A stretch of DNA of 64,000 bases from a virus: positions 42,638 to 106,637 of IMG/VR virus record IMGVR_UViG_3300047462_000185, one strand, 5' to 3'. This document shows, one piece after another, positions 131-55,196 of the stretch (its first letter is position 1; every line of letters starts with the position of its first letter). Below the pieces are notes generated by a model that ran no database searches, was not told where the DNA came from, and was given only the letters and a program-made list of their open reading frames with translations. Made by a program: the position numbers and the translations under genes.

Positions 131-580
131 CTATTCTGGCTTTTCGGATGAGCCCTGGACCGGCGCCGGCGGCGGCTCAGGCCCCGCGCCTTCCTTGTCG
201 TCGGGCGGAGCGGCGGGCGGCTGGTTGATCTTCTGGATCAGGTCATGGGCCAGTTCGGCCGCAATCTTGTAGTGCAACTCGCGATCGAGGGCCGGCATGT
301 TGGTGCGCCGCATCGTCTCCTCGATGATCAGGAAAGCGGCAAAAAGCATGTCCTGCATGGGCCGCTCGTTCAGCAGCGCGACGAGGATATTGTATGTCGC
401 CATCGTGGCGGGAAACCGCATCTGAAGCAGGGCGCGTAGCTGAACGTCGAGGAATTTGGTGCGCTCGTGCGCCACCACCTCATCGGGCGAAGGGACAATG
501 TTGAACAGCCTCATCGCGTCTTTCTCGTCCATGACTTCCTCGGCCTGGTTGAACAGGTAGGCCGCGGCGCGGCCTTTCAA
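131..580 (-). CDS. hypothetical protein
   Basis: ORF in leftward operon, 4-nt overlap with next gene, followed by a family-1 repeat. Confidence 0.6.
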   Translation of the reverse strand: MKGRAAAYLFNQAEEVMDEKDAMRLFNIVPSPDEVVAHERTKFLDVQLRALLQMRFPATMATYNILVALLNERPMQDMLFAAFLIIEETMRRTNMPALDRELHYKIAAELAHDLIQKINQPPAAPPDDKEGAGPEPPPAPVQGSSEKPE

Positions 581-906
581 TTGGGTTTGGTAAGCCCGGA
601 GCCACGGCCGATCAATCGGGATTGCTCGGTTTCGGCGTAATCGATGAAGCTCTTGGCGAGGCTTTGCATAGCGGCCTCGGTGCGGTTCCGCTCCTCCGGG
701 GTGAAATTGCCATTGCGATAGACAGCCTCCAGTTCGGCGTGGAGCACGAACAGGATGATGATCTTCGATAACGGTTCGGCCATCAGAACGCCGGCGATGC
801 GCTGACCGAGCTGAGTGACCTTCGATCTGTTGAGATCGATCATCATCTTCAGCTGGGCGGCCAATCTTTCCTCGGCAGACATCTGGGAAATTCTGTCGTC
901 TGGCAT
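577..906 (-). CDS. hypothetical protein
   Basis: ATG preceded by GAGGAG of the family-1 repeat. Confidence 0.7.
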   Translation of the reverse strand: MPDDRISQMSAEERLAAQLKMMIDLNRSKVTQLGQRIAGVLMAEPLSKIIILFVLHAELEAVYRNGNFTPEERNRTEAAMQSLAKSFIDYAETEQSRLIGRGSGLTKPN

Positions 907-24233: not shown

Positions 24234-26103
24234 GTCTCAGTCGGCAGCGCTGCCGAGCCGGTCGCCCAGGTCGATCACCTCGCCGGCGAGCGGCTCGGGC
24301 GACGGGGACTTGGTGGGCCAGAGCGACATGGCGCCCTTCACCAGCGTATAGGCCGGCGGTGCCAACACGGCACACGCCAGCTCGACGCGGTTGCGGGGCC
24401 GCAACGTGCTCATCATTGAGGTCAGCATGGTCGTCTCCTATAGGGATTGAGACTTGGCTGGGTCTCGTCAGCCTACGCGCGAGGGCGCGCAGATACCGGG
24501 TCGCATGGGGTGGTTCGGGCGACCACCACACCCCCATGCCTCGCAAATGTGGGCCGAGCATGATCCGGCTCGACGCGGCAGCGCATCATTCGTGCGCACT
24601 TCCTGGTCGCCCAAAGGGTGAAGTCCCGGTTTCAGTGTGTCGGCCGGTCCCGGGGGAACGGGTGGAACCGGCCGACCTGGTCACGCCACCGTCAGGGTCT
24701 CTTGGGCGGTGGCTACCGGGACGTGATCAGCTCCAGCAGGCCAAGGGCTGGGCGGGCGAGCGATTGTGTTGGTTCGACACGTGTTGTCCGAACCGTGGCT
24801 TCGCGGCTGATCACGATCCACGCGCCGGCGCTTTCCGTCGTCATGGGCAAGCCCATCACCGGTGCGTTTCGGTGCGTTGGCCCGATCTGGTGACGTCCGC
24901 GCTGCCTCGGGTGACGCGGGTCGGAATCGGCTCTTGGCGGTATCTTGAGAATTGTCGAGAGAGTTGCCTGAGGTGCCGATACGTCTTCGATCGGTATCAT
25001 CCTCTGATCCTGGCGTCCTTCGCCTGGACCGCTCGGTCGACGCGCCAGTGATTGGCAGCGTGTAGCACCGCTGAAGGGAGTGCGAGCGTCCTGTGGGATG
25101 ATCGGCTGCTGCGCCAATGGCGCGCTGCCTGAGTGATAGATGGGGAGGCGTATCATTCCTTTCAAGGGGTGAACCCTTTCATCGGCCTGCATCGAGCAGG
25201 AAGGCCCGCCGGAGCGGGTTAGTCGGTGGGAGGCCGGTCGACGAAGACCGAGCCAACCTGCGTGTATGAGAATTTCCCGATATGCACGCTGGTGATGAAA
25301 TTCACGCGCAGGCCAGCTTCATGAGCGGCTTGGATGGCTTTGTTGAGCTGATCAGACCTTTGGCGAATCAGCACTTCGTGTTCCTCGTCTGTCACGTCAG
25401 CCGTCCTTCGCGGTGATTTTCAGCTTCCAGTCGCCAACGGTGTTGCCGTTGATGTCGACGGCGTTGCCCTCCATGAGTCCGTTTTGAATCTGGTGGGAAA
25501 CCTCGCGCAGTATGCGGGTCATTTCGCTTGCGCCATAGCCGTCGTTGAACGCGGCGTTGCCTGTGTCGATCTTCATTCTGAATATGTGGTTCTCCTCAGT
25601 CCGGCGGGATGCCGGGCACCGGGTCAGCCGGTTTCGATTGCGTTTACGTCGGCGATACGCGCTACGGTCTGGCGCTTGCCGTCAAGAGTCACACCTACGA
25701 CGGAAGGGATAAACCCTGCCGCATCGTAGAAACGCACCACGCGGAAAATCAAAGTGGGATATCCGATCAAGGTGAAGTGGCTCATCTTTCGTCTCCTCAG
25801 TCCGGCGGGATCGCCGGGCACCGGCTAGGCCGGTTTCGTCTCAGGCCATTCGATGCCTTCCGCGACGCCTGCGAGATGATAGATGTCGCGGGGCGATACG
25901 TCAGTAGGAGCCGAAAGACGGCAAGCGTTCTGCGCGAAGGCGACCTTTGCCGCAGGCATTCCGGCTGCTGCGTTCCGGGCGAGATGCCGCAGATGTGGGT
26001 AGCGCCGCACGTAGGCGTCGAGAACTGATTGTGGGATCATTATTTTCTCCTCAGTCCGGCGGGATGCCGGGCATCCGGCCAGGTCGATCCTGGCCGGGTT
26101 TCG

Positions 26104-26784: not shown

Positions 26785-27048
26785 TAGTGTGCCTTTCTGC
26801 CGGGAAGCGCCGGCTGATCGCGCTGGATGGGGGTCCAGCAAGGCCCCTGGTTGGCTAGGGGTCTTCGAGCGTCGGGCCGTCATTGTGGCTCGCCAGGATC
26901 GGCGCGCCGGTGCGATGAGCCTCTGCCATGCGGCGAGCTTGGTCGCGCGTGTAGCCCGCGCGCTCGAGCGCGAGAATGAGCGACATTTCGCTATTGTGGT
27001 CGTTCGACCATTTGTCGTTGTGCCGTCGCTCGAAGAAGTTTTCTTTGC

Positions 27049-27412
27049 TCACGGCAGTTCGCCGGTCGGGCGGCCGAGCTTGCGCCGCAGCCGGTTGATC
27101 TGCGGCTCGTAGAGGGCGCGCGCCGCCGGCGTCGCAGCGGCTAGCTGCTCGGCGATGAACTGGCGGTCTCTTGGGCATTTGGCGAGCCTGGATGGGGCGA
27201 ACCGGGTCGACATCGACCACTCACCGGGTCGACATCGACCACTCGCCCCCGATCCGCTTGCAGGCCGCCTCCGCGGCGTTCCTGGCACGATTGGCGGCCA
27301 GGTCTTCAAGGTGTGCGATCTCGGCGCGGATGCGCTGGATCACCTCGTCACGGGTCGGACCGGGCGTGGTGAGTGCAGGACCGCCGTTGTGGCCGATTTT
27401 CGATAGTGGCAT
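27049..27412 (-). pseudogene. small gene frameshifted by a 22-bp tandem duplication
   Basis: ACCGGGTCGACATCGACCACTC repeated at 27201-27222 and 27223-27244; GEWSMSTR appears in two frames. Confidence 0.7.
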
Positions 27413-27691
27413 GGGAGGCCTTTCTGCCGGCGAAGCGGCCGGCTGGACGCGCTGCACGGTGTGCAGCAAGGCCCCGCTAGGCGGGGGTAGCAGGCCCCTC
27501 AGGGCGCATGGAGTTGGGATGGGTGGGCAGCTGGCACCGCTTCGTCGTGAAGCGCGCCAGGCGCCGGTTTTCGCGTCGGATGAACCGAACCGCACTGGCC
27601 AGCGCCGCGACCTGGTCGGTCGCGAAGCAGTCGAGCGTCACGTAGTTGTGGTAGCTCGGGTGCCAGAAGCGATAGGTGAACATCTGCACGG

Positions 27692-27895
27692 CTACGCCGT
27701 CATGATCAGCAGCTGCTCGGCGCCATAGACTGCCGCCTCGCCGCACATCTCGCACTCGCCGCCTTCCATGTCGGGCTCGCATTCCTCGGCCTCTGCGCCG
27801 CATGCGGTGCAGAAGCCGGGGCTGTCGAGACTGGTTAGGTGCCGTTCGACCGCTTTCATGATGCGGTCCGTCGTGATGGACTCATGGATCTTCAT
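27692..27895 (-). CDS. small zinc-ribbon protein
   Basis: PGFCTACGAE..ECEPD....CEMCG..AVYGAEQLL. Confidence 0.75.
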   Translation of the reverse strand: MKIHESITTDRIMKAVERHLTSLDSPGFCTACGAEAEECEPDMEGGECEMCGEAAVYGAEQLLIMTA

Positions 27896-27960
27896 GGGTA
27901 TGCCTTTCTGCCGGTAAGCGCCGGCTGATCGCGCTGCACGGTGTGCAGCAAGGCGCCCGG

Positions 27961-28413
27961 TCACGCCGGGCTTTCGGCAATCGTTTTCGGCTTGAACATG
28001 ACCAGCGAGATCGCGTCGGCCGTGAGGTCGATGATCAGTTCGGTCATGTTCGGCGGATAGGTCGCGAGTGCGGCATTCAGCTCGGTGAGCAGGATATGCT
28101 CCGAGCCATCGTCGCCGCCGAACAATCTGTTCTTCGCCTCCCACCAGTCGTCGAAGTCCATCTTGGTCGGATCGCACTCGCGTGCGTAGACCACGAAGCT
28201 CTTCGTCTTTGACTGGTTCGGATCAGCGGGATCGGGCGGCACGAGCAGGCCCGGATCGCCGTTGCTCATCAGGTAGACACCAACATCGCCGACCAGCATC
28301 AAGGCAGGCTTCGGTTTGCCTTTCTTGCCGTATTGGCGGTGATGCTTCGGGGCTGCGGCGCAATGTTCGATCAAACGTCGCACGCCTATCAGGTCGAAGT
28401 GTATCCGAGACAT
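27961..28413 (-). CDS. DUF3085-family protein
   Basis: LMLVGDVGVYLMSNG...VYARECDP...DWWE....FGGDDGSE. Confidence 0.85.
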   Translation of the reverse strand: MSRIHFDLIGVRRLIEHCAAAPKHHRQYGKKGKPKPALMLVGDVGVYLMSNGDPGLLVPPDPADPNQSKTKSFVVYARECDPTKMDFDDWWEAKNRLFGGDDGSEHILLTELNAALATYPPNMTELIIDLTADAISLVMFKPKTIAESPA

Positions 28414-28673
28414 GGGTTGGTCCTTTCTGCCGGTGAGCGCCGGCTGGACGCGCTGGACGAGGTCCAGCAAGGAGCTTCACCCCTCTGCATCTGGATCAGA
28501 TTGGCGAGGCGTGAAGCAAAGCACTCCGATCAGCAGGCCAGCACCTAGCCCGATTAGGCCAAGGCTGCCCCATCTGAGCAACGTGCTGATGAGGAACAAA
28601 AGAGTCATGGGTGTGCCTTTCTGCCGGATAGCGCCGGCTGATCGCCCCGCATCGGATGCGGGAAGGCCCGCCG

Positions 28674-29153
28674 TTAGGCGGGGATAGGCTTCTCCGGCGC
28701 CAGCGGTGCATCGATCCGCAGGAACTCGTTGATGGGGTTGTGGTCCGCCTGTTCGTAGGCGCTCGTGTCGATCTCGCGCAGCTCGATGGTCTGGCTGTAG
28801 GCGACATGCCAGCACACGTGATCCTTGGAGGTCACGTGCGCGACCAGGCAGTCGAACCTGTCGCCCGGAGCCTTCGAAATGGCGGTCTCGGCGTTCATTC
28901 GGTCCACCGGATTTTCCATGTTGAGATAGCGCCAGAACATCCAGACGTGGCTGGTGCGCGAGTCGATCATTGGCCATTCCAGGCCTTCCTTGTGCTGGAT
29001 GATGTCGCCGCGCTTGAAGGTCGGGACGGCCTTGTTGAACTGGGCCAGCCTGGCGCGCAGCTCGACCACCTGAGCCTCGGGAATGTCCCGATGCGTTTTC
29101 TGGTCGACCGTGCCGCGGGCCGCGCCCATCAGGTCTGAAAGTGAAAGAAGCAT
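28674..29153 (-). CDS. hypothetical protein
   Basis: ATG after family-2 repeat. Confidence 0.7.
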   Translation of the reverse strand: MLLSLSDLMGAARGTVDQKTHRDIPEAQVVELRARLAQFNKAVPTFKRGDIIQHKEGLEWPMIDSRTSHVWMFWRYLNMENPVDRMNAETAISKAPGDRFDCLVAHVTSKDHVCWHVAYSQTIELREIDTSAYEQADHNPINEFLRIDAPLAPEKPIPA

Positions 29154-29714
29154 GGATGTTATCCTTTCTGCCGGGACGCGCCGGCTGATCGCTCCGCGGG
29201 GATCGCGGAAAGGAATGAGCCGCCCCACCCGATTTGGGCAGGGCGGCTCGTTGGTCAGATACTCGGCTCGGGCCGCTCCTCGATCACGACATTGCCGAGA
29301 TCGATGGCGGGGCTGGGAGCCTCGCGGGTGAACATCGCCTTGGCACGGCGCATGCCGGCCTGGCTGGCGGTGCTCAGCTTGCTCATCCCGGTCGTGGCGC
29401 AGCGGTGGGCCTGGTAGGCGCCATATGCGGCGACACCGATCGTGCCGCAGATCACCACCACGGCGGCGAGAGCCTGGACGCCTTGAAGGGCCCCTTCACG
29501 GAGCATGGGAGCGGCGGCGCGGCCCACGTTGACCATGACGGGAACGGCGGGACGGATGATGGACTGGAGCATGGGGTGTTCTCCTTGGGATTTCGCCGGA
29601 AGCGCCGGCTGAACGCCCTCAGCTGAGCTGAGGGATCCCGGACCGCGCCACTTGTGGCGCAGCCCTCGCGCGGGGGCGTTCGCATCGCTGCGGCCCGCAC
29701 GACCTAGGGATTGA

Positions 29715-30062
29715 TCAGGCATTGACGACTTGTTGCAGCACGCCGCGCAGCTGGTCGCGATGAGGGGTCAGCAGTTCGGCAGTCGCCAGAATCTGCAGCC
29801 CCGTCGCGAAGCAGTTGCGTGACCGTGTGATCGTGTCGAGATGATCAGGGGGGAAGTCTGTCCCGACCAGGGCCAGGATGATCATCTCGTTGCGGCGCCG
29901 GCGCCGGGCCATGCCGATCCGGATCCGCTGTATCAGGTCTTTGCCTTCGTCGTAGAGCAGCTGGTATCCGGCCGAGAGGGTAATGCCGCCGACCAGGGCG
30001 CCGAGCGCAACCGCGCCGCGCCTCAGGAAGGGCCGGGCCAATGCTGTGGACATGGGGGTCAT
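29715..30062 (-). CDS. hypothetical membrane protein
   Basis: AAGGAG SD; hydrophobic N-terminus. Confidence 0.6.
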   Translation of the reverse strand: MTPMSTALARPFLRRGAVALGALVGGITLSAGYQLLYDEGKDLIQRIRIGMARRRRRNEMIILALVGTDFPPDHLDTITRSRNCFATGLQILATAELLTPHRDQLRGVLQQVVNA

Positions 30063-30573
30063 GCGTCTCTCCTTGGTGTTTCGACCGGTCGGACCGGCCC
30101 TTATCGAGGGTCAAACGTGACCCGAAACCACAGCGAGACTCATGTTTACACAGATATATGTGGTTTGAAAAAGAAGAATTTCAAGACCCGAAACGATTTC
30201 CGCCCCGACTGCCGAGGTTCGCCTGTGGGGTTGGTCCCACCCGCGTCGCGGGTTCGCGCCTGAAGCGCTCGTCGGGGGATCTGGGTGGCGGCCCTCAATG
30301 GATCTCGTATCGCTCGATCATGAGCCAGCCGCCGCATCTCTGGGGCTTGCAGGTGCAGGCGCCAGGGACGGCGATCATTTCGACCGAGCCGTCTGGGCAG
30401 GACAGGATGCAGCCACGTGGCGTGGTGTGGACGTGGTAGCCGCACCCCTCGTAGTGGCGGGCCGACATGTTGATGAACTGGTCGAGCGAGACGACCTTCT
30501 TGGGTCTCTGGCGCGCAGCCATTGATGCTTCTCCGTGTCGTGAGGCGCGGGGATCCACGCCTTCCCGCCCGGC

Positions 30574-30876
30574 TCAGCCGGGTTCGCCTTGCGGCTCATC
30601 AGGGGATTTTTTCGGCACGAAAGATTTCATGCCGCCGTCGTTTTCGATCTGATGGTGATTTTTCAGCGTATCGGACAGCAATCTGGCGACGCTGCCTGAA
30701 CTGAGAAAGCCGATGATTTGCTTCTGATCGACGCCTAACTTGGCGACGCACTCGTTGTAGATTTCCATCGGCGAGAAGTTGCGATAATCCTGCGTGAGTT
30801 CGACGCGCACCAGCGCATAGATGACGTTGGTCCCGTCGCTCAGCAGGGTTTTGATCGTATTGGGCATATCTGACAT
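30574..30876 (-). CDS. hypothetical protein (paralog of 30953-31219)
   Basis: AAGGAG SD; YALVRVEL motif. Confidence 0.65.
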   Translation of the reverse strand: MSDMPNTIKTLLSDGTNVIYALVRVELTQDYRNFSPMEIYNECVAKLGVDQKQIIGFLSSGSVARLLSDTLKNHHQIENDGGMKSFVPKKSPDEPQGEPG

Positions 30877-30952
30877 GGGGATCTCCTTATGTTGGTCCCG
30901 CCCGGCCTAGCCGGGTTCGCCCTTGGCGGGCTCGTCTGGGGATTTGGGACGG

Positions 30953-31219
30953 CTAACGAACATCGCGGTGCTCAGCTTGCTCGGTCATTGGCATGTTGCG
31001 CATAATGCCGAGCAGGATATTACGAGCTGCGGATGAGTTCATCGTCGTGATAACGGTCTCGGTCGACAACCTAGCGTGGCGCACCACGTCGGACTTTATC
31101 TCATCCGGCGCGTAGTTCTTGAGCGAATAGGGAAGCTCGAACCGCACCAGGGCATAGCCCACCTTCGGTCCGTCTAGCTCGGCCATCTGCTTGATTATTG
31201 CCATCGGGTGCATTGGCAT
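30953..31219 (-). CDS. hypothetical protein
   Basis: AAGGA SD; YALVRFEL motif. Confidence 0.65.
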   Translation of the reverse strand: MPMHPMAIIKQMAELDGPKVGYALVRFELPYSLKNYAPDEIKSDVVRHARLSTETVITTMNSSAARNILLGIMRNMPMTEQAEHRDVR

Positions 31220-31285
31220 GGGGATTTCCTTCTGCTGAAGCACATATTGATGTGCTTTCCCGCCCGCACACAAGCGGGTTCGCGC

Positions 31286-31651
31286 CTATGCGGCGCTCGT
31301 CTGGGGAAGCTCGGCCAGCATCTGGGGTGAAAGGCGCAGGTTGGCGTGGGGACGCCGCGCCGCCTCTTGGCAGGCCATGTAGCCGATTGCCTGGCGAATC
31401 TTCTGCGCCGCGGCGTGAACCGTGCCGTCATAGGCCGGTTTCGTCACCACGGGCACAGACCAACCGGCCACCTTGTGCAGGCCGCATTGGAGAGCGCCGC
31501 CGGCATGCAAGCTCTGAATCGCCGTCTCGAAGGCTTTCACCTCGTGGGGCTGGACCACGGCGCAGAACCGTAGCTCGGCCGTGGTGTAGGTCTGGCGCTG
31601 GTTGATCGCCATAGCAAGCAGGACGCGCCGCTCCATTGGATCGGTGAACAT
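31286..31651 (-). CDS. hypothetical protein
   Basis: AGGAG SD; stop codon lies inside a hammerhead-like motif. Confidence 0.65.
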   Translation of the reverse strand: MFTDPMERRVLLAMAINQRQTYTTAELRFCAVVQPHEVKAFETAIQSLHAGGALQCGLHKVAGWSVPVVTKPAYDGTVHAAAQKIRQAIGYMACQEAARRPHANLRLSPQMLAELPQTSAA

Positions 31652-31961
31652 GGGAATCTCCTATTTGGTTGGTCCCACCCGCCGCAGCGGGTTCGCGCCG
31701 TCAGGCGCTCGTCTGGGGAAGGAACTGGTCGGCCGGCGCCGCGCTGTCGCGGATCGCCTCGGCGATCGCGGCCGTCACCTCGTCTCGATCGGGCCGGAAC
31801 GGCCGGTGATCGAGGGTCAGGTCGGCCGAGACGCGGATCACGGCGGCGCGCCGAACAGAGCAGGGCCAGCTGGACAGTGTCATGCGGAACATGGGGATAT
31901 GCCTTTCTGCCGGGAAGCGCCGGCTGATCGCGCTGGATGGGGGTCCAGCAAGGCGCCCGCG

Positions 31962-32363
31962 CTAGGCGGGCTCCAGGACATGCTCCTGGGCAGGAACGGT
32001 TGGCCTGGTGGTGAGAGGCGTGCCATCGGGGTGCTCGCCCCACGCCTTCAGGCGCTCGATCGCGAGATCGAACATCTTCAGCACGGCCGGGTGGCCATAC
32101 ACGTCGTTCAGGTGAATGACGCTTAAGGCTCCTGGCTCAACCGCTCTCACGACCGAGGTCAGGGTCGGTGTGCCGCGCTCACCGTCGAGCTCGGCATTTT
32201 GGCTGACGAAGCGACAGGCCCCGATGGCGCACCACCGGACCGCGTTCGCCTGCAAAGCGAACGCGGATTCGCCCGAAGCATCGCGTGCCGCGGCAAACCG
32301 GCAATACCGATTTGGATCGCTGATCAGCGCCCGCGCCGCGACATACATCTCGAATTCGGTCAT
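31962..32363 (-). CDS. DUF6197-like phage protein
   Basis: ARALISDP..YCR.AAARD...AVRWCAIGA...LND..GH..VLKMFDLAI. Confidence 0.7.
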   Translation of the reverse strand: MTEFEMYVAARALISDPNRYCRFAAARDASGESAFALQANAVRWCAIGACRFVSQNAELDGERGTPTLTSVVRAVEPGALSVIHLNDVYGHPAVLKMFDLAIERLKAWGEHPDGTPLTTRPTVPAQEHVLEPA

Positions 32364-33821: not shown

Positions 33822-36398
33822 ATGAACCTGCCGGATGGTGTGGCCGAGATCAGGGACACGCTGCTCGCCAACGAGATCGCGATCCAGCGCGAGCTGGGCC
33901 GGCGCTCGTTCTACGACTTCTACAAGATGGCGTGGCCCGAGCTCGATCCGGCCCCGTTCGTCGACAATTGGCACATCGGGCTGATCTGCGACGAGTTACA
34001 GGCCGCGGCGCGCCGCGAGGTGCTGAACCTGTGTATTGCAATTCCGCCAAGGCACAGCAAGCCTGTGCATGAGGATGAGCCGGTTCTCACTGCCCGAGGA
34101 CGTATTTCATTGCGCGAAGTGGTGGTGGGCGATTTCGTTCTGACCCACATGGGACGCTTTCGGCGAGTCGAGGCGGTTCACATCCAGGGCGAGTTGCCTA
34201 CGCTCACGGTGCGCGCCTGGTCAGGTCGCGCTGCCCGTATGGCACCTGACCATCCTCTGCTGACGGCGCGTGGGTGGGTGCAAGCCCAGCATTTGGTTGC
34301 GGGTGACAGGGCAGCGGTCGCACGCATCGATGAGCAATGTGGGCAGGATACCGTCTCGGCCGAGGAGGCGCGACTTCTGGGCTATCTGGTGGGTGATGGA
34401 TCATGCACTCACTCGGCAATCAACATCACAGCTCTAGATGAGACTGAAATTGCCGATATCCAGGCATGCGCCAACACCCTCGGGATCGGGACGTCCATCA
34501 CACGCAAAACAAAGACCGCAGCGGTCAAAGTCGGATTACTCAATGACAGACTGAAAAACCGATGCGGTGCTGCGCATCAGCTTATCGATCGTGCTGGCCT
34601 CACGGGCAAGAATAGCTACACGAAGCGAGCTCCGCCTTCGATTATGGCCGCAACGCAGCGCATCATCGCCGAATTCCTGGCCGCCTACTGGGCCTGCGAT
34701 GGGTATATCGCGAAACGGGGCTTCCTAAAGGACGGTAGAATTCGAACTGATGTCTGTGTCGGTTGCGACACGGTCAGCCGAGAGTTGGCGCTCGATGTCC
34801 AGCATTTGCTTTATCGGCTGGGCGTAAACTCTCGCGTCAGGACGAAGGTAGCGAAGATCAAGACTAGGAAACAGGGTAGCGACACTTACACATCGTATTC
34901 CGTCTCGATGACGTCAGCTGATGATGTCGCGCGTTTTGCGTCGGCGGTCACAATTCCGCACGCCAAGCAAGCTCTCCTTGACCGACATAAGGGGCGCACA
35001 GACTTCGATAGGCCGCTCTGGCGCGATGAGATTGTGGCAATCGAGCAGAGTGAACCCGCGCCATGTCGATGCCTGACGGTTGATGAGGATCAAAGCTTCA
35101 CCGCAGGCGACCTGGTGGTCCACAACAGCCTGCTCTGCTCCGTGGCGTTCCCGGCCTGGGTGTGGACCTGGTGGCCCGCGGCCCGCTTCATCACGTCGAG
35201 CTACGATGTGGTGAAGCTCGCGATGCGGGACGCGCTGGCGGCGCGCCGGCTGGTGACCAGCGACTGGTATCAGACGCGCTTCCCCGAAGTGAAGCTGGCG
35301 GCCGATCAGAACGTCAAGAGCTTCTACCAGACCACGGCGGGCGGGGCGCGGTTCGCCTGTAGCCCGACGGCCGGCCTCACCGGTCATGGCGCCGATTTCG
35401 CGATGTTCGACGACCCGCACAACGTCACGAAGGGTGAGTCCGAGAAGGATAGGGACAGGGCCAGGACGTTCTGGTTCGAGGCCATGTCGCCCCGGTTCAA
35501 CAACCCGTCTCACGGGGTGCGGATCGTGGTCCAGCAGCGCGTCAACGAAGCTGACGTCGCGGGCGAGTGCATCCGGCGCGGCTATCATACAGTAGTTTTG
35601 CCGGCCCGGTTCGAGCGCGACCATCCGCAGCGCTCGCCTCGGGATCCGCGCCAGGTCGAGGGTGAGTTGCTTTGGCCCGACAAGTTCTCCGATGCGGATG
35701 TCACCAAGCTCGAAAAGGACATGGGGCAGTTTGCCGCGGCGGGCCAGCTGCAGCAGCGTCCCGTGCCGCGCGAGGGTGGGCTGTTCAAGCGCCACTGGTT
35801 CGAGATCGTGGACGCGGCGCCGGCGACGCAGCGCAGGGTCAGGTCGTGGGACCTGGCCGCATCCGAGAAGAAGGTCACGTCGAGCGATCCGGACTACACC
35901 GTGGGTCTGCTCATGTCGCTGTGCGACGGCGTCTACTACATCGAGGATGTGAGGCGTGACAGGCTCTCGCCGCACGGCGTCGAGCTGATGATCACGAACA
36001 CGGCCAAGCAGGACGGCAAAGGGGTGAGGATCAGGTTCCCGCAGGACCCGGCCCAGGCCGGCAAGTTCCAGGTCCGCTATTACGTGACGCAGTTGGCCGG
36101 GTGGATGCTGCACATCGAGCAGGAGACCGGAGACAAGGTGACGCGTGCCGATCCGTTCTCGAGCCAGGCCGAGGTTGGGAATGTGAAGCTGGTCAAGGGC
36201 GCATGGAACGAGGATTTCCTGTCGGAGATCGCGATATTTCCTGGGGGTGCGCACGACGACCAGGTCGATGCGGCGACGGGCGCGTTTCGGGCCCTGACGA
36301 GCGGCACGACGGGGATCATCGACTTCTACCGGCAGCAGATCGCGGCGCGTGACGCGGCGCGTGACGCGGCACGGGGTCCGGGCGACGGCACACGATAG
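33822..36398 (+). CDS. terminase large subunit with intein
   Basis: Walker A PPRHSK/S, TGHGAD..FDDP Walker B, QQRP, SWDLA, GDKVTRA, FPGGAHDDQVDA. Confidence 0.96.
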   Translation: MNLPDGVAEIRDTLLANEIAIQRELGRRSFYDFYKMAWPELDPAPFVDNWHIGLICDELQAAARREVLNLCIAIPPRHSKPVHEDEPVLTARGRISLREVVVGDFVLTHMGRFRRVEAVHIQGELPTLTVRAWSGRAARMAPDHPLLTARGWVQAQHLVAGDRAAVARIDEQCGQDTVSAEEARLLGYLVGDGSCTHSAINITALDETEIADIQACANTLGIGTSITRKTKTAAVKVGLLNDRLKNRCGAAHQLIDRAGLTGKNSYTKRAPPSIMAATQRIIAEFLAAYWACDGYIAKRGFLKDGRIRTDVCVGCDTVSRELALDVQHLLYRLGVNSRVRTKVAKIKTRKQGSDTYTSYSVSMTSADDVARFASAVTIPHAKQALLDRHKGRTDFDRPLWRDEIVAIEQSEPAPCRCLTVDEDQSFTAGDLVVHNSLLCSVAFPAWVWTWWPAARFITSSYDVVKLAMRDALAARRLVTSDWYQTRFPEVKLAADQNVKSFYQTTAGGARFACSPTAGLTGHGADFAMFDDPHNVTKGESEKDRDRARTFWFEAMSPRFNNPSHGVRIVVQQRVNEADVAGECIRRGYHTVVLPARFERDHPQRSPRDPRQVEGELLWPDKFSDADVTKLEKDMGQFAAAGQLQQRPVPREGGLFKRHWFEIVDAAPATQRRVRSWDLAASEKKVTSSDPDYTVGLLMSLCDGVYYIEDVRRDRLSPHGVELMITNTAKQDGKGVRIRFPQDPAQAGKFQVRYYVTQLAGWMLHIEQETGDKVTRADPFSSQAEVGNVKLVKGAWNEDFLSEIAIFPGGAHDDQVDAATGAFRALTSGTTGIIDFYRQQIAARDAARDAARGPGDGTR
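34062..35126 (+). mobile_element. intein with LAGLIDADG homing endonuclease, inserted in the TerL P-loop
   Basis: K|PVHEDEPVLT...APDHPLLT...LLGYLVGDGS...FLAAYWACDGY...CRCLTVDEDQSFTAGDLVVHN|S; codon usage differs from flanks. Confidence 0.93.
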
Positions 36399-42460: not shown

Positions 42461-43115
42461 TGCACCTTCTTTTTTCGAGCGGGCCGTCTATTGGCCGACT
42501 TGCTTCAAGTGCCGCAAGCGCGTCGATCAGATCACGGCCAACTATGATCATGAGCATGGCGTGCTGCGGCTCGAAGCCGAGTGTCACGGCGAGCGCGACA
42601 CGGAGGTCGTTTCCATTCCTAAAGGCGCAACGCCGACGATCTTGCTGCGCTGGCAGATGAACGAGGGCTTCGCGTTCACCTGGATTTCCCCTTCATATCG
42701 AGGAGCTTTTCTCAATGACTGAGGAAATCGAGAAGATACAGGAAAAGACTGGCGAAACTCCCGAGAAGCGGATGCCTGCCCTTAGCGCTACGCCGGAGTT
42801 GCGTTGGTATAGTCGACCATTCAAGAGGTTAGGTAGCTCGACGGTCGACTACACGAAGCCAGAGTTGGAGCAGTGCTACATCGATTACGAGACAGGCGAC
42901 ACATTTTGGAAGGCAGTTCATCTTTTCATAGACACGATAACAGTAATGGTGAGCAACCCGCAGCCTCCTGCGCAGGATAGCGGTGATGCGTGATCTGTTG
43001 GAAACTCTCGCGGTTATATTGATCATCCTGATTTTTTGGGTGCTTAGAAGAGGACCTGAGGGCGTGGGCACCGATATTGGCGTTGCCATCGCCGCGTTCA
43101 GAAAGGCGGTCGGCC

Positions 43116-50757: not shown

Positions 50758-50832
50758 GGGGGCGTAGCTCAGCGGGAGAGCACTGGTCCTGCAAACCGGG
50801 TGTCGTCGGTTCGAGTCCGACCGCTTCCACCA
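50758..50832 (+). tRNA. tRNA-Ala(TGC)
   Basis: cloverleaf, G3:U70, encoded CCA; C33. Confidence 0.9.
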
Positions 50833-50836
50833 CTAT

Positions 50837-50911
50837 GCGGCTGTAGCTCAGAGGTAGAGCACCTGCTTGCCAAGCAGGATGTCGAGGGTTCGATTCCCTC
50901 TGGCCGCTCCA
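50837..50911 (+). tRNA. tRNA-Gly(GCC)
   Basis: canonical cloverleaf, U73, CCA. Confidence 0.95.
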
Positions 50912-50940
50912 TATTGCGTGTCCCGATTGGGACGATAGTT

Positions 50941-51015
50941 GCGCTTGTAGCTTAATGGTAGAGCCGGCTGCTCATAACAGCCTCGGTGCCCGTTCGACCC
51001 GGGCCGGGCGCACCA
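50941..51015 (+). tRNA. tRNA-Ile2/Met(CAT)
   Basis: cloverleaf, loop CTCATAA; Ile2 vs Met unresolved. Confidence 0.85.
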
Positions 51016-51034
51016 TTTGGCTCGCGCAGGAGAT

Positions 51035-51110
51035 AGCGGGGTAGACTGGAGGCGGTTCCAGCTAGGTCTCATAAGCCTAAGAGGGTGGTTCGATTCCACC
51101 CCCGCTACCA
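51035..51110 (+). tRNA. tRNA-Met(CAT), atypical D arm and acceptor
   Basis: TAGGT-CTCATAA-GCCTA, T loop TTCGATT, CCA. Confidence 0.75.
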
Positions 51111-51114
51111 AATT

Positions 51115-51189
51115 GCCGATGTAGCTCAGTGGTAGAGCGCCGCTTTGAAGAAGCGGGCGTGGGTGGTTCAATTCCATCCGTCGGCACCA
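51115..51189 (+). tRNA. tRNA-Phe(GAA)
   Basis: cloverleaf, loop TTGAAGA. Confidence 0.92.
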
Positions 51190-51193
51190 CGAT

Positions 51194-51269
51194 GCGGCGC
51201 TAACACTCTGGGGAGTGTGTCTGCCTTCCAAGCAGTTCCAGACGGGTTCGATCCCCGTGCGCCGCTCCA
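51194..51269 (+). tRNA. tRNA-Gly(TCC)
   Basis: cloverleaf, loop CTTCCAA. Confidence 0.9.
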
Positions 51270-51331
51270 TCTAGCCGGGAGTGCTCCATTTTGCACGTCC
51301 GCGCCACGGTGCGGTCCGGCGGCCATTTCGA

Positions 51332-51408
51332 TCCGGTCGGTCCATAATGGCAATGGAACGAGACTGTTAATCTCGACGCTGCTGGTTCGAATCCAGCGAC
51401 CGGAGCCA
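51332..51408 (+). tRNA. tRNA-Asn(GTT)
   Basis: U1-A72, G73, loop CTGTTAA. Confidence 0.9.
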
Positions 51409-51412
51409 GTTT

Positions 51413-51486
51413 GGGAGTCAAGTGTTACGGTAGCACGACCGGCTCCAACCCGGTTAGCGTGGGTTCAACTCCTACGACTCCTGCCA
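51413..51486 (+). tRNA. tRNA-Trp(CCA)
   Basis: loop CTCCAAC, G73. Confidence 0.9.
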
Positions 51487-51490
51487 AATT

Positions 51491-51566
51491 GCGTCGCGAG
51501 CCAGACGGCAGAGGCGTTCCGCTGCAAACGGAAAAACACCGTGTTCAATTCACGGGCGGCGCTCCA
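51491..51566 (+). tRNA. tRNA-Cys(GCA)
   Basis: loop CTGCAAA, U73. Confidence 0.85.
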
Positions 51567-51573
51567 ACTCGAT

Positions 51574-51649
51574 GGTGACGTGAGTCAGCCGGCGTGGACG
51601 GCCCGCTGTGACCGGGTCTAGATGGGTTCAACTCCCATACGTCACCCCA
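51574..51649 (+). tRNA. tRNA-His(GTG)
   Basis: G-1:C73, loop CTGTGAC. Confidence 0.88.
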
Positions 51650-51653
51650 ATTT

Positions 51654-51728
51654 GCCGGATTAGCACAGCGGAAGTGCAGTGGTTTTGTAAACCGAAGGTC
51701 AGGAGTTCGAATCTCCTATCCGGCTCCA
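51654..51728 (+). tRNA. tRNA-Thr(TGT)
   Basis: loop TTTGTAA. Confidence 0.92.
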
Positions 51729-51737
51729 GTTTCATGA

Positions 51738-51811
51738 TCCCCGGTCGTCTAATGGCAGGACATCGGATTCTGGATCCGAGGGTTGTGGTTCGAGTCCATG
51801 CCGGGGAGCCA
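51738..51811 (+). tRNA. tRNA-Gln(CTG)
   Basis: U1-A72, loop TTCTGGA. Confidence 0.92.
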
Positions 51812-51847
51812 TTGAAACACACACTTCGATGTGTTATTGCCGTTTTA

Positions 51848-52159
51848 ATGAAGATGCGCACCGATCGCAGTCAGATCAAGGAAATGCTTCGAAGAGGCGT
51901 TTCATATTCGAAGATCACTGCTAAGACGGGCGCAACAAAAGGCACGCTCAGCTACATAGCAAAGAGCAGTGGAAAACCTCTAACGCTTCGTCTTGATCAT
52001 TTCGATGGTGATGGAGGAAATCACGACATTGAAAACCTACGGTTCATATGTCCCAATTGCGATAGCCAATCTCCAACTTACGGACACAGAAACCGCGGGC
52101 GTTACGCTCGGCTTGGGGTTAAGCTTTCAAGTGTGCAGGGTAGCCACACCGCGTTTTGA
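51848..52159 (+). pseudogene. HNH homing-endonuclease remnant inside the tRNA array
   Basis: HTH-like N-terminus fused to PLTLRLDHFDGDGGNHDIENLRFICPNCDSQ; first CxxC absent; lower GC. Confidence 0.7.
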
Positions 52160-52198
52160 GCGCGGAAGCAAGGGGTTCGACTCCTCGGCCCCAAACCA
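52113..52198 (+). tRNA. tRNA-Gln(TTG), about 10-nt insertion before the D arm
   Basis: TTGGGGT/GCCCCAA acceptor, CCGCG-TTTTGAG-CGCGG. Confidence 0.7.
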
Positions 52199-52202
52199 GT
52201 TT

Positions 52203-52277
52203 CGCCCATTCGTTCAATGGCAGGACAACCGATTCTCGATCGGTCAACGCGGGTTCGATTCTCCGCATGGGCGACCA
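52203..52277 (+). tRNA. tRNA-Glu(CTC)
   Basis: loop TTCTCGA. Confidence 0.85.
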
Positions 52278-52280
52278 GTT

Positions 52281-52362
52281 GCGCGTGTGGCGGAACGGTA
52301 GACGCGGCCCCCTTAAAGCGGGCTGTCTCGGCGTGCAGGTTCGATTCCTGTCGCGCGCACCA
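52281..52362 (+). tRNA. tRNA-Leu(TAA)
   Basis: class II D loop, loop CTTAAAG, variable arm. Confidence 0.88.
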
Positions 52363-52376
52363 ATCAGGAGCAGCAC

Positions 52377-52571
52377 ATGAGTGATCGCGATGTCCCGCTG
52401 CACACCTACGAGCTGATCTATCGAGACGCCAATGTGAAGCGACAGCGCATGCGCGTCGCCGGCGGCTGGATCTACTCGTGCTCGCTGCTTAGCTCGACCG
52501 GCAGCGTGGCAATTTCGGAAGTTTTGGTTCCAGATGCTCGCGTGGGCCAACAGGTAGAGTCAGCACGTTGA
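52377..52571 (+). CDS. small hypothetical protein within the tRNA array
   Basis: AGGAG SD; RMRVAGGWIY motif; 3' end overlaps tRNA-Leu(GAG). Confidence 0.6.
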   Translation: MSDRDVPLHTYELIYRDANVKRQRMRVAGGWIYSCSLLSSTGSVAISEVLVPDARVGQQVESAR

Positions 52572-52612
52572 GAGCGTGTCCAGTGCCGGTTCGAGTCCGG
52601 CCGCGAGCACCA
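52536..52612 (+). tRNA. tRNA-Leu(GAG), short variable loop
   Basis: loop TTGAGAG, A73. Confidence 0.88.
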
Positions 52613-52616
52613 GATT

Positions 52617-52693
52617 GCGGGGATGGGCAAATCGGTAAAGTCGCTGCGTTCAGACCGCAAGGTGTGGGCTTCGAATGCACCCGCTCTCCGCCA
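52617..52693 (+). tRNA. tRNA-Leu(CAG), degenerate
   Basis: loop TTCAGAC; bulged T stem; no NCCA after acceptor. Confidence 0.6.
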
Positions 52694-52696
52694 AAT

Positions 52697-52785
52697 GGAA
52701 GGTGAAGTCGGCAGGAGCCGGCCGCCCGTTCGAAACGGGAGGAGACCCGCGAGGGTCAGGGGATCAAGACCTCCGCCTTCCGCCA
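52697..52785 (+). tRNA. tRNA-Ser(CGA)
   Basis: GGA/TCC acceptor, G73, long V arm, loop TTCGAAA. Confidence 0.85.
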
Positions 52786-52789
52786 GCTT

Positions 52790-52878
52790 GGATCGTGCCG
52801 GGGGTTGGCTCCCCCAGCGGGTTGCTAACCCGTGGCTCCCCTCCGGGGATGAGGGTTCGATGCCTTCACGATCCGCCA
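52790..52878 (+). tRNA. tRNA-Ser(GCT)
   Basis: loop TTGCTAA, long V arm, G73. Confidence 0.85.
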
Positions 52879-52879
52879 T

Positions 52880-52955
52880 GCCCCGTTAGCAGAGTGGCTA
52901 ATGCGCGTCCTTGGTAAGGACGAGATCGCCGGTTCGATTCCGGCACGGGGCTCCA
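52880..52955 (+). tRNA. tRNA-Thr(GGT)
   Basis: loop TTGGTAA. Confidence 0.9.
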
Positions 52956-53041
52956 TACGACCAGCCGTTTGCACCACGCCTGAGCCGGCCGCGGCCTGAT
53001 GGGGCCGGACGCTTTCGCGAACGGGTGTGGCAGGCTGTGCT

Positions 53042-53126
53042 GGGCAGGGACAGCCGGTGGCTCCGGCGAGCGGCCTGTAAAGCCGTGCCCTTCGGGGGAG
53101 AGGATCGAAACCTCACCTGCCCACCA
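53042..53126 (+). tRNA. tRNA-Tyr(GTA)
   Basis: loop CTGTAAA, V arm, A73. Confidence 0.85.
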
Positions 53127-53128
53127 TT

Positions 53129-53203
53129 GCTCGCGTAGCTCAATGGCAGAGCAGTCGGTTGATAACCGACCGACGATGGGTTCGATTCCCACCGCAAGCA
53201 CCA
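53129..53203 (+). tRNA. tRNA-Ile(GAT)
   Basis: loop TTGATAA. Confidence 0.9.
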
Positions 53204-53214
53204 GATCACGAGAA

Positions 53215-53290
53215 ACACCGGTAACTCAGAGGCCAGAGTGCTGTCCTTTTAAGTCAGAGGTCGCGGGTTCGAATCCCGTCCGGTGTTCCA
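53215..53290 (+). tRNA. tRNA-Lys(TTT)
   Basis: loop CTTTTAA, U73. Confidence 0.88.
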
Positions 53291-53363
53291 TGAATTCCTC
53301 GCGGACGCGCGGGGCGCTGCATTCCGCGATAGGTCCAAAGAGCACGCGGGTGCAGCTGGATTT

Positions 53364-53437
53364 GCTCGCATCTTTCAGTGGCAGGAAGCTGGATTGTCGA
53401 TCCGGTAACAGGGGTTCGATCCCCCTTGCGAGCGCCA
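53364..53437 (+). tRNA. tRNA-Asp(GTC)
   Basis: loop TTGTCGA, G73. Confidence 0.9.
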
Positions 53438-53568
53438 TAAAGCCGCTTCATCAAATCGGCGCGCCATCTACCTGCCGCTTGCCGAGGCGCGGCGAGGGTC
53501 AAACCGAAGCCGAGGGGTGCGACCCGCCCCGAAGCCTGGGGCTCGCCCGCCACGGCAAGCAGCAGTTT

Positions 53569-53644
53569 CAGGGCGTAGGACAGTGGCCAGTCCGCCTGCT
53601 TCGGGAGCAGGAGATCGTGAGTTCGAATCTCACCGCCTTGACCA
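53569..53644 (+). tRNA. tRNA-Pro(CGG)
   Basis: C1-G72, loop TTCGGGA. Confidence 0.93.
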
Positions 53645-53652
53645 TTTTCGTT

Positions 53653-53725
53653 GTCCTCGCCTGCGGATCAGGCGCCGGCACTCCTAATGCTGGGTGCGCC
53701 GGTTCGAATCCGGCCGGGGACGCCA
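53653..53725 (+). tRNA. tRNA-Arg(CCT), non-canonical core
   Basis: loop CTCCTAA, 6-bp anticodon stem, no 8-9 linker. Confidence 0.8.
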
Positions 53726-53726
53726 A

Positions 53727-53801
53727 CAGGATGTAGCTCAATGGGAGAGCACCGCGTTTGGGGCGCGGGGGCTGGTGGTTCGAGTCCACTCATCCTGACC
53801 A
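53727..53801 (+). tRNA. tRNA-Pro(TGG)
   Basis: loop TTTGGGG. Confidence 0.93.
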
Positions 53802-53804
53802 ATT

Positions 53805-53879
53805 GCGTGCATAGCTCAGCGGGAGAGCGCTCCGTTCACACCGGGGATGTCGGGAGTTCAATCCTCTCTGCACGCACCA
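53805..53879 (+). tRNA. tRNA-Val(CAC)
   Basis: loop TTCACAC. Confidence 0.93.
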
Positions 53880-53951
53880 GTTCGGGGGGCACAGTCCCGC
53901 CCGTGGGGCACGGTCCGACCCGGAGAACCGGTCGGCCGCGAAGCTATCGTT

Positions 53952-54026
53952 GCGCGCCTAGCTCATCGGGAGAGCGTCGCTTTGACATAGCGAAGGCGGC
54001 CGGTTCGATTCCGGCGGCGCGCACCA
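53952..54026 (+). tRNA. tRNA-Val(GAC)
   Basis: loop TTGACAT. Confidence 0.93.
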
Positions 54027-54039
54027 GCTACCGCTCCGG

Positions 54040-54305
54040 CGGTTATGGCTGTAACGGCCTGGATGGAATGCCGACCTGGACCCGGGGGCAGCGCCCGGCG
54101 TCTCCACCAAGGGGGACGACGCAGATCTCGACAGGTCGATCAAAGATCCAGGCTCAGCCCGGCAAGGAACGGCCGGCAATCTGTCCGCATGAGAAATGCC
54201 AATGACAACACTGGCATGGGAGCGGTGCGCCTCGCGGCGTAACCACCCGGCGCCCTGAGGGGGGCGTGGCAACAGCAGGGGCGGCCCTCGAAAGGTCGCC
54301 CCACC
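54040..54305 (+). ncRNA. ssrA: circularly permuted two-piece tmRNA; tag (A)ANDNTGMGAVRLAA
   Basis: acceptor 3' end CGTCTCC-ACCA (to 54109) precedes 5' end GGGGACG (54112, G3:U70); tag ORF 54198-54242; CGACCTG/CAGGTCG and GCCTGGAT/ATCCAGGC pairings; outer ends approximate. Confidence 0.92.
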
Positions 54306-54316
54306 CTCGCCTATTC

Positions 54317-54392
54317 GGGGCTGTGGCGCAGCTGGGAGCGCGTCTGCATGGCATGCAGAAGGTCGTCGGTTCGATTCCGACCAGTTCCACCA
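54317..54392 (+). tRNA. tRNA-Ala(GGC)
   Basis: G3:U70, loop ATGGCAT. Confidence 0.95.
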
Positions 54393-54396
54393 AATT

Positions 54397-54470
54397 GCCG
54401 CGGTCGAATAAGGTAGTTCACCGGTCCTTCAAATCGGTCGGCGCGGGTTCAAATCCCGTCCGCGGCACCA
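54397..54470 (+). tRNA. tRNA-Glu(TTC)
   Basis: loop CCTTCAA. Confidence 0.85.
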
Positions 54471-54495
54471 ACCGTTTCCATATTGGAAAGTGTTT

Positions 54496-54568
54496 ACCCC
54501 TGCCGATGGCTCTCGGGCTCTGCGCTACGAACGTGGAAGAGCTGGTTCGATTCCAGTCAGGGGTTCCA
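54496..54568 (+). tRNA. tRNA-Arg(ACG), non-canonical core
   Basis: loop CTACGAA; D stem abuts acceptor. Confidence 0.8.
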
Positions 54569-54574
54569 GATCAT

Positions 54575-54646
54575 GCGGCGGCCGCCGAGCCGGGCCATGG
54601 CCTTCTAAGCCGAGGGAGGTGGGGCAAGCACCCACCCGCCGCACCA
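54575..54646 (+). tRNA. tRNA-Arg(TCT), highly divergent
   Basis: GCGGCGG/CCGCCGC-ACCA, loop CTTCTAA, T loop GCAAGCA. Confidence 0.65.
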
Positions 54647-54650
54647 GCTT

Positions 54651-54723
54651 GCTCTCGCCTGTGGATCAGGCGCTGACCCTCCGAAGGTCGGACGCGCCGG
54701 TTCGAATCCGGCCGAGAGCTCCA
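54651..54723 (+). tRNA. tRNA-Arg(CCG), non-canonical core
   Basis: loop CTCCGAA, same fold as Arg(CCT). Confidence 0.8.
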
Positions 54724-54818
54724 GCAAGGGACCGGGTCGCGTGCGAGCGTGTCTCCCGGGACAAAGTCGATGCCGAGACGCGAGCCCCGGCATGGTCCCT
54801 CACAGCGGCGGCGCGACC

Positions 54819-54894
54819 GGCTGACGACGAGCGTGGAATGCAGTCCCGAGATGCCGCGCGGGGCAGGCCGTTCGATACGGCTAGTCGTCAGCCA
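54819..54894 (+). ncRNA. tRNA-like RNA without a canonical anticodon loop
   Basis: acceptor TGACGAC/GTCGTCA-GCCA, T arm GGCCG-TTCGATA-CGGCT, 10-nt loop AGATGCCGCG. Confidence 0.6.
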
Positions 54895-54943
54895 AACCGC
54901 CCAAAATCGGCGAAAAATATTCCTGGAAATATTCCAGATCGTT

Positions 54944-55025
54944 GCGGGCGTGGCGGAAAGGTAGACGCGGCCGGCTCAAACCCGGCTGATCATTCGTGCA
55001 GGTTCGAATCCTGTCGCTCGCACCA
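54944..55025 (+). tRNA. tRNA-Leu(CAA)
   Basis: loop CTCAAAC, class II D loop. Confidence 0.9.
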
Positions 55026-55031
55026 TTTCAT

Positions 55032-55119
55032 GGACCAGTGCGCCGAGTGGCGAAGGCAGCCGACTCTTAATCGGATGGGCGAAAGCCCCGCGTGAGTTCG
55101 AATCTCACCTGGTCCTCCA
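55032..55119 (+). tRNA. tRNA-Lys(CTT) with long variable arm
   Basis: loop CTCTTAA; V arm GGGC-GAAA-GCCC. Confidence 0.85.
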
Positions 55120-55121
55120 AT

Positions 55122-55196
55122 GCCCGTGTAGCTCAATGGCAGAGCAGCCGCCTCGTAAGCGGCCGACGAGCGGTTCGATTCCGCCCACCGGCTCCA
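55122..55196 (+). tRNA. tRNA-Thr(CGT)
   Basis: loop CTCGTAA. Confidence 0.88.

Follow-up and report, generated by a model that had tools for sequence, protein, structure and literature searches.

The DNA analysed here, called the window, is a stretch of 64,000 nucleotides (nt) covering positions 42,638 to 106,637 of IMGVR_UViG_3300047462_000185, a 106.6-kb, 93%-complete virus genome of IMG/VR; coordinates below are those of the window. On its minus strand an operon of small orphan genes starts at about 32600 and runs downwards, divergent from the terminase genes. The first six genes of the operon are separated by five RNA elements of 44-50 nt, named copies A to E, which are the subject of this work. 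A previous inspection of the letters alone (the sequence-only reading) had described them as hammerhead-like RNAs. Table 1 lists the genes, the five elements and the related features of the window.

Table 1. Genes of the operon and hammerhead-like elements of the window (ORF, open reading frame; aa, amino acids)
Feature	Coordinates	Strand	Details
Block of six small orphan genes interleaved with elements	30295..32363	-	
133-aa orphan gene	31962-32363	-	ORF
63-aa orphan gene	31701-31892	-	ORF
121-aa orphan gene	31286-31651	-	ORF
88-aa orphan gene	30953-31219	-	ORF
100-aa orphan gene	30574-30876	-	ORF
75-aa orphan gene	30295-30522	-	ORF
Copy A	31719-31673	-	core CAGACGA, C15.1-G16.1, U17; predicted cut 31677/31676; covariance model 64.2 bits
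Copy B	31307-31258	-	core CAGACGA, C15.1-G16.1, C17; predicted cut 31262/31261; covariance model 65.5 bits
Copy C	30942-30896	-	core CAGACGA, C15.1-G16.1, C17; predicted cut 30900/30899; covariance model 68.8 bits
Copy D	30606-30563	-	core CUGAUGA, C15.1-G16.1, C17; predicted cut 30567/30566; covariance model 60.2 bits
Copy E	30279-30235	-	core CCGACGA, C15.1-G16.1, U17; predicted cut 30239/30238; covariance model 63.3 bits
Divergent leader copy (probable)	32466-32407	-	CUGACGA, 7-bp stem II, GAA, U at 15.1; 16.8 bits, E 0.17
Decayed 3' half copy	30197-30230	-	GCGAA-stem III-C-GGAA; without 5' core or stem II; missed by covariance model
Type III repeat copies	31901-31954, 29587-29639, 29162-29214, 28615-28667	-	descriptor
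Type III repeat copies	28421-28473, 27902-27954, 27415-27475, 26791-26844	-	descriptor
Near-canonical type III copy	25158-25204	-	core CCGAUGA, A15.1-U16.1; sole consensus deviation U4C
Near-canonical type II copy	534-581	-	core CCGAGGA, A15.1-U16.1; sole consensus deviation U4C

All five elements share the layout UCCC-CNGAYGA-stem II-GAA-CCCG..CGGG-Y-GGGA on the minus strand. The order of helices is the same in every copy: stem I, a strand of 7 nt, the stem II hairpin, GAA, the stem III hairpin, position 17 and stem I again. This three-way junction is the minimum-free-energy structure of each copy folded alone, and the RNAalifold consensus is identical. A regular-expression search of the window together with the alignments confirmed to the base the five minus-strand positions given by the sequence-only reading, and the alignment likewise bore out its description of the core, namely C15.1-G16.1 in every copy, C or U at position 17 and a variable position 4. 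Position 17 is C in three copies and U in two, never G; position 4 is A in three copies and C in one, and copy D alone has U there, with the canonical CUGAUGA as its 5' core. At position 7 there is C or U. In all copies stem I is UCCC/GGGA and stem III begins with a C-G pair. Besides the three-helix junction, the GAA and the non-G17, the hammerhead residues C3, G5, A6, G8, A9, G12, A13 and A14 and the pair G10.1-C11.1 are invariant in all five.

The strict pattern has 5 matches in the 106.6-kb genome, on one strand only, and none when the genome is read backwards. The covariance model built from the copies scores them at 60-69 bits, while the next-best genomic match has 18 bits. In the element alignment 95.7% of the paired cells are filled by pairs, compared with 36-56% in slid controls, and 28 columns are invariant. 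Between copies, identity is 92-93% over the first 13 and last 9 nt of the element and 27-30%, the background level, over the 40-nt flanks. Two of the operon proteins separated by the elements, those of 88 and 100 aa, are paralogs with 32% identity. Because the flanks are at background identity and the separated paralogs are just 32% identical while the core is invariant, selection, and not recent copying, accounts for the constancy of the core. The earlier statement that stems II and III vary in sequence yet stay paired goes too far, as it holds only for the distal pairs. Stem I and the first four pairs at the base of stem III are invariant in sequence, and compensatory changes are found in only 2 of the 14 pairs, one each in stems II and III. 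The variation falls where a hammerhead tolerates it best, i.e. at position 7, position 17, the loops and the distal stem pairs, and less comfortably at position 4.

The elements are also fitted to the ends of the genes. As the sequence-only reading had noticed, three copies carry the stop codon of the upstream gene in or at a hairpin loop: the stop of the 63-aa ORF is within loop II of copy A, that of the 121-aa ORF at the boundary of loop II and its stem in copy B, and that of the 100-aa ORF within loop III of copy D. In copies C and E the upstream stop is located 11 and 16 nt 5' of the element, respectively. The ATG that follows copy C is at 30876, and copy E is the last element ahead of an AT-rich gap of 170 nt. 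An extra perfect hairpin stands before the next ribosome-binding site after copy B (31257-31238) and copy D (30562-30543); downstream of copies A, C and E a conserved CCAAC is found instead.

Related phages were fetched through the large terminase (TerL), which is about 55% identical in the two relatives that have arrays, and their whole records were searched. The first of the two (G004, 93 kb) has 18 matches to Hammerhead_II, of which two are above the Rfam cut-off, and they are clustered on the strand opposite to TerL, as here. The second (G002, 98 kb, IMGVR_UViG_3300037231_000129) has 8 Hammerhead_II matches. Homologs of a 67-aa Cys-rich gene of the present operon lie directly beside the elements of G002, and therefore the punctuated operons are orthologous. 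Using a permutation-aware descriptor, we found in G002 four consecutive type II elements of the form CC-GAA-CCCGGG..CCCGGG-Y-stem I-UUGAAAA (or UUGAUAA)-GG. They have the same C15.1-G16.1 pair, the same GAA-CCCG..CGGG-Y module and C or U at position 17, and like the copies here they are located just before a ribosome-binding site. They differ in the type II permutation, in an open stem II, in having U at position 4, and in U3-A8 in place of C3-G8. This last change is a covariation that preserves the tertiary 3-8 pair, and it is known in natural hammerheads (PMC3088659). In G002 these variants share one array with canonical CUGAUGA/GAAA copies. Among 80 phage loci with the Cys-rich gene, C15.1-G16.1 was found in G002 only.

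Other forms were seen in the relatives as well. On the minus strand of G004 (L278), from 22.4 to 35.7 kb, most type II copies retain A15.1-U16.1-C17 and have position 3 occupied by A or U (AUGAGGA in four copies; UUGAUGA; UUGAAAA), one more unusual core in this clade. A third relative (G001) has a single type III element on the minus strand near 20476, with the core GAGAUCA (a G3-C8 swap), A15.1-U16.1, A17 and a stem III of 6 bp; it stands just downstream of a homolog of the 115-aa gene of the window. In 45 related loci the covariance model gave no convincing match up to 10 kb from TerL, and the descriptor detected no arrays in 59 TerL-neighbourhood loci except that of G004.

A second intergenic repeat occurs in the same genome, with 8 copies in the window and 2 just before its start (G000). 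Its sequence, GCCU-U17-stem I hairpin-GCGAUCA-GCCGG..CCGGC-(A)-GAA-AGGC, can be read as a hammerhead-like junction of type III. Stems I and III covary between copies, and the 3' strand of stem III shares nucleotides with the Shine-Dalgarno sequence. This family keeps the canonical A15.1-U16.1 pair but departs from the consensus in four ways: positions 3 and 8 are swapped to G3-C8, position 4 is C, G12 is preceded by an additional A, and A6 is replaced by U in three copies. The strict descriptor detects these copies and finds none in ten simulated genomes. From Table 1, two further elements deviate from the consensus only by U4C, which is a known natural variant (PMC3088659, PMC4075628); the one at 25158-25204 shares its frame with the GCGAUCA family, whose ancestor may have looked similar. 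For the whole genome there are 18 descriptor matches against about 0.4 expected, hardly any of them with a textbook core, and at least 15 operon junctions carry non-canonical cores (C15.1-G16.1 for type I; G3-C8, C4 and the extra A for type III). The best explanation is that the elements belong to a punctuation system extending over the whole operon, with a non-canonical hammerhead-like element at nearly every junction between genes. A weak Hammerhead_II match at 28256-28316 on the minus strand (20.4 bits, E 0.006 for the genome), which includes CUGAUGAG, is inside a DUF3085 gene and is probably due to chance.

The count of five in the sequence-only reading is right for the type I copies but too narrow for the operon, which holds a divergent leader copy and the second family in addition. 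The leader element has its 15.1-16.1 pair as U-G or U-A depending on the register, with a weak and ambiguous stem I, and we regard it as probably a divergent sixth copy. The degenerate sixth copy that had been suspected at about 30198-30230 exists as a 3' half, but its 5' core and stem II are absent and the covariance model does not detect it.

The best explanation for copies A to E is that they are type I hammerhead-derived three-way-junction RNAs, and their descent from hammerheads is very probable in view of the sequence comparisons. The descent is supported because the sister phages carry hammerheads in the orthologous operon, one of them repeating C15.1-G16.1 in another circular permutation. 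The hammerhead relationship claimed earlier is upheld by these type II arrays and by the Rfam family HH9, which picks the same core register. Whether they still cut is a separate matter. In the mechanism that we consider most likely, the elements would self-cleave in cis after position 17, probably slowly, at the cut sites predicted in Table 1, and the polycistronic transcript would be converted into single-gene messages. The upstream message would end in the hairpins of stems II and III with a 2',3'-cyclic phosphate, and the downstream message would have GGGA with a 5'-OH as its first nucleotides, its ribosome-binding site following about 20 nt later. What the analysis shows directly is that the elements exist, fold as described, occupy gene junctions, keep a conserved core and are kin to the hammerhead arrays of the sister phages; cleavage, its rate and any effect on message stability are inferred.

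In favour of cutting, the catalytic residues are invariant, position 17 is never G, and the 3-8 pair covaries across families. Mutations at C3, G5, A6, G8, A9, G12, A13 and A14 cost 10- to >100-fold in activity (PMC4075628). The 3-8 pair is C-G, U-A or G-C in the variant families of this clade, and it exists only in the active-site fold. Published cases give some room for unusual cores: natural variants with U15.1-A16.1, U3-A8, A6C or U4C have some activity, the U15.1-A16.1 variant still cleaving weakly (PMC3088659), and G17, likewise excluded from minimal hammerheads, is accepted by hammerheads with tertiary stabilisation (PMC3884650). Clustered hammerheads are also known to cut polycistronic prophage RNAs of Azorhizobium and Agrobacterium (PMC3088659). 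We judge the chance that copies A to E retain self-cleavage at a biologically meaningful rate to be close to even, though slightly below it. It is similarly conceivable, with a little more doubt than confidence, that hammerheads with C15.1-G16.1 function as ribozymes in nature, against the NHH rule; this reading is suggested because the forbidden pair is kept in two related phages and two permutations with an intact catalytic core.

Several results weigh against cutting. The A15.1-U16.1 pair is absent in all five copies and U4 in four of the five, and no documentation of A4 in hammerheads was found in the literature. For the NHH rule, the passage of PMC3923133 that cites Kore 1998 states that engineered trans-acting hammerheads are uncut when 16.1 is G. 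Single mutations of A15.1 cost >100-fold (PMC4075628), and a deep mutational scan measured low activity for single and double mutants in the CUGA turn (PMC9901934). No element reaches an Rfam threshold: the best matches are to HH9, with 17.4 bits for copy C and 14.3 bits for copy D against a threshold of 52, RF00163 (type I, clan CL00010) has no match at E<=10, and the gathering-threshold scan of the window returned no hammerhead. The Rfam models are insensitive in this phage, as RF00008 misses even the near-canonical copy at 25158-25204; it has no match to the type III GCGAUCA repeat either. Stem I has only 4-5 bp and no bulge, and by inspection only, no loop-loop, loop II-flank or pseudoknot contact was seen; hammerheads depend on a tertiary contact between stems I and II to cut fast at cellular Mg2+. 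When copies A, B and E are folded in their native context, competing pairings beat stem I or stem II. The invariance of stem I and the proximal stem III is not a hammerhead requirement. Finally, RNA-library contigs bridge the predicted sites of copy A (31643-31870) and copy C (30724-30968), which is weak evidence as the contigs are shallow and carry-over of DNA is possible.

No RNA-library contig ends at any predicted cut site, but these are low-depth contigs that do not map RNA ends. Contig ends near the type III repeat are probably assembly breaks at repeats, and a contig in RNA run X13 that skips 5110 nt (26789 to 31900) was rejected as an assembly artefact through the 55-nt type III repeat rather than splicing. 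Two other readings of the elements were also discarded. A register that restores A15.1-U16.1 through an A14-U17 pair in copies A and E deletes A14 and puts G at position 17, and the elements cannot be read as type II through the downstream GGGA..UCCC hairpin, as no core follows this hairpin.

The strongest competitor to cutting is a catalytically dead hammerhead fold that is kept as structural punctuation between cistrons, for which roles as a 3' exonuclease block, as insulation of translation-initiation regions, or as a site bound or recognised by a protein or a cutting nuclease of phage or host origin can be proposed; we hold it to be a real possibility, albeit one we would not bet on. Much of what was listed above speaks for it: G16.1 is the one nucleotide that the NHH rule, in the passage quoted, forbids (PMC3923133), changes of A15.1 and U4 are strongly deleterious in published mutagenesis (PMC4075628, PMC9901934), no tertiary contact is visible beside a marginal stem I, and the RNA-library contigs span sites A and C. 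Sequence-specific recognition would predict an invariant stem I and proximal stem III, as observed, and the type III family of the operon is off consensus at four places, including A6 in three copies. However, a scaffold or barrier does not account for invariant catalytic residues beside a drifting position 7, or for the covariation of the tertiary 3-8 pair across families. A binding protein would need to recognise one core in three permutations, types I, II and III, and no candidate was identified, the neighbouring genes being orphans.

Much less probable is that the elements are an unrelated structured RNA that looks like a hammerhead by convergence, either a k-junction-like element bound by an L7Ae-type protein or a riboregulator in which GGGA toggles between the upstream UCCC and the UCCC before the next AUG. 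The YGA before and the GAA after stem II (G8-A9, G12-A13) could indeed give tandem sheared G-A pairs, but five unpaired nt before G8-A9 with invariant C3, G5 and A6 fit a hammerhead and not the 3-nt bulge of a k-turn. Similarly, GGGA does pair with the downstream UCCC in the minimum-free-energy structures of copy A within its context and of the isolated 3' fragments, but the CCCAUG start context is also found at genes without a type I element, and so the downstream UCCC is not specific to the elements. True hammerheads in the corresponding operon of the sister phages also argue against convergence. Least probable of all, to a degree that we give it very little credence, is a functionless repeat that tandem gene duplication or gene conversion left behind as a neutral by-product. 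All copies are within 1.5 kb, two neighbouring genes are paralogous and no relatives were found elsewhere, which would agree with such an origin. On the other hand, the paralogs are at 32% and the flanks at background while the core blocks are at 92-93% with two compensated stem pairs, gene conversion confined to a 47-nt segment and sparing loops and distal stems is unlikely, and the decayed half copy shows what neutral loss looks like. Two kinds of known punctuation were excluded. An intrinsic terminator does not fit, since no U tract follows any copy and the terminator scan has none at the elements on the minus strand. An RNase III site of the type in T7 early mRNA does not fit either, with stems of 3-6 bp against the duplex of about two helical turns that is needed.

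The closest known systems are the hammerhead clusters in prophages of Azorhizobium caulinodans, Agrobacterium tumefaciens and Clostridium scindens (Perreault et al. 2011, PMC3088659), which, as here, stand at consecutive junctions between single small genes of a phage operon; the present phage is also of alphaproteobacterial type, judging by its tmRNA. Those arrays share with the present elements the three-helix junction, C3, G5, A6, G8, A9, G12, A13, A14, H17 and G10.1-C11.1. The differences here are C15.1-G16.1 for A-U, the absence of U4 in four of the five copies, a stem I of 4 bp and sub-threshold Rfam scores; moreover, the 2011 arrays were shown to cut, and cutting by the present elements is a prediction. 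The natural variants described in the same work likewise deviate at 'invariant' positions in phage and prophage intergenic regions, but C15.1-G16.1 is not among them (PMC3088659), and our literature search found no publication on a C15.1-G16.1 hammerhead or on an exchange of the 15.1-16.1 pair.

In phage T7, RNase III sites between the early genes are long imperfect duplexes that are cut by the host enzyme, giving single-gene messages with hairpin-capped 3' ends. These sites are a functional analogue, whereas the elements here have stems of 3-6 bp and a ribozyme core instead. Outside the genome, the type I variant pattern has no true relative in IMG/VR or in the GTDB genomes (185,579 reference genomes), and none among the matches listed for the JGI metagenomes. 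The recurring 39-nt matches in IMG/VR are a protein-coding motif, DERxW..KANPxLG, and the remaining pattern matches failed the architecture test or had 24 bits or less with the covariance model.

Hammerhead arrays in phage operons have been on record since 2011. What is new is the variant that consistently has G16.1, seen here in two phages and in two permutations. Hammerhead searches, including Rfam and the 2011 survey, discard matches with a mutated core, and thus such variants are invisible by design. The phage offers five natural copies of a 15.1-16.1 pair that is reported as untolerated in engineered hammerheads. Should they cut, hammerhead searches rely on too strict a consensus; should they be inactive, the clade has recruited a ribozyme fold to punctuate messages without catalysis. 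Either outcome bears on the open question of what role hammerhead arrays have for phages.

Several minor observations concern the operon and the genome around the elements. Near 32625-32597 on the minus strand the leader has a promoter-like TTGACT..TATGGC, found by reading; the consensus promoter scan lists none. A strong terminator-like hairpin at 32506-32474 (minus strand, 14 pairs, with a U tract) is directly followed by the divergent leader copy, and the two together may be an attenuator or antitermination point. After copy E, the AT-rich non-coding gap at 30063-30197 (minus strand) contains a promoter-like TTGAAA..CATATAT. The depth of the RNA-library contigs peaks at 7-12x at 29254-30133, just downstream of this gap, compared with 1-3x over the type I array, and this rise hints at a second transcription start. 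The sequence-only reading had called the mRNA early, which we infer from gene content and position only. The 121-aa protein has no homolog in IMG/VR or in a set of 5.8 billion proteins, and GenBank phages gave no DNA match, near or distant.

The large terminase ORF (33822-36398, plus strand, 858 aa) has an apparent intein-like insertion that ends in ..VVHNS. Its C-terminal 428 aa alone aligned to relatives. The phage genome was found in moss and plant metagenomes. The window has about 25 transfer RNA (tRNA) genes at 50758-55193 on the plus strand and an alpha-type (permuted) transfer-messenger RNA (tmRNA) at 54030-54242, and this alpha-type tmRNA together with the tRNA genes points to an alphaproteobacterial host.

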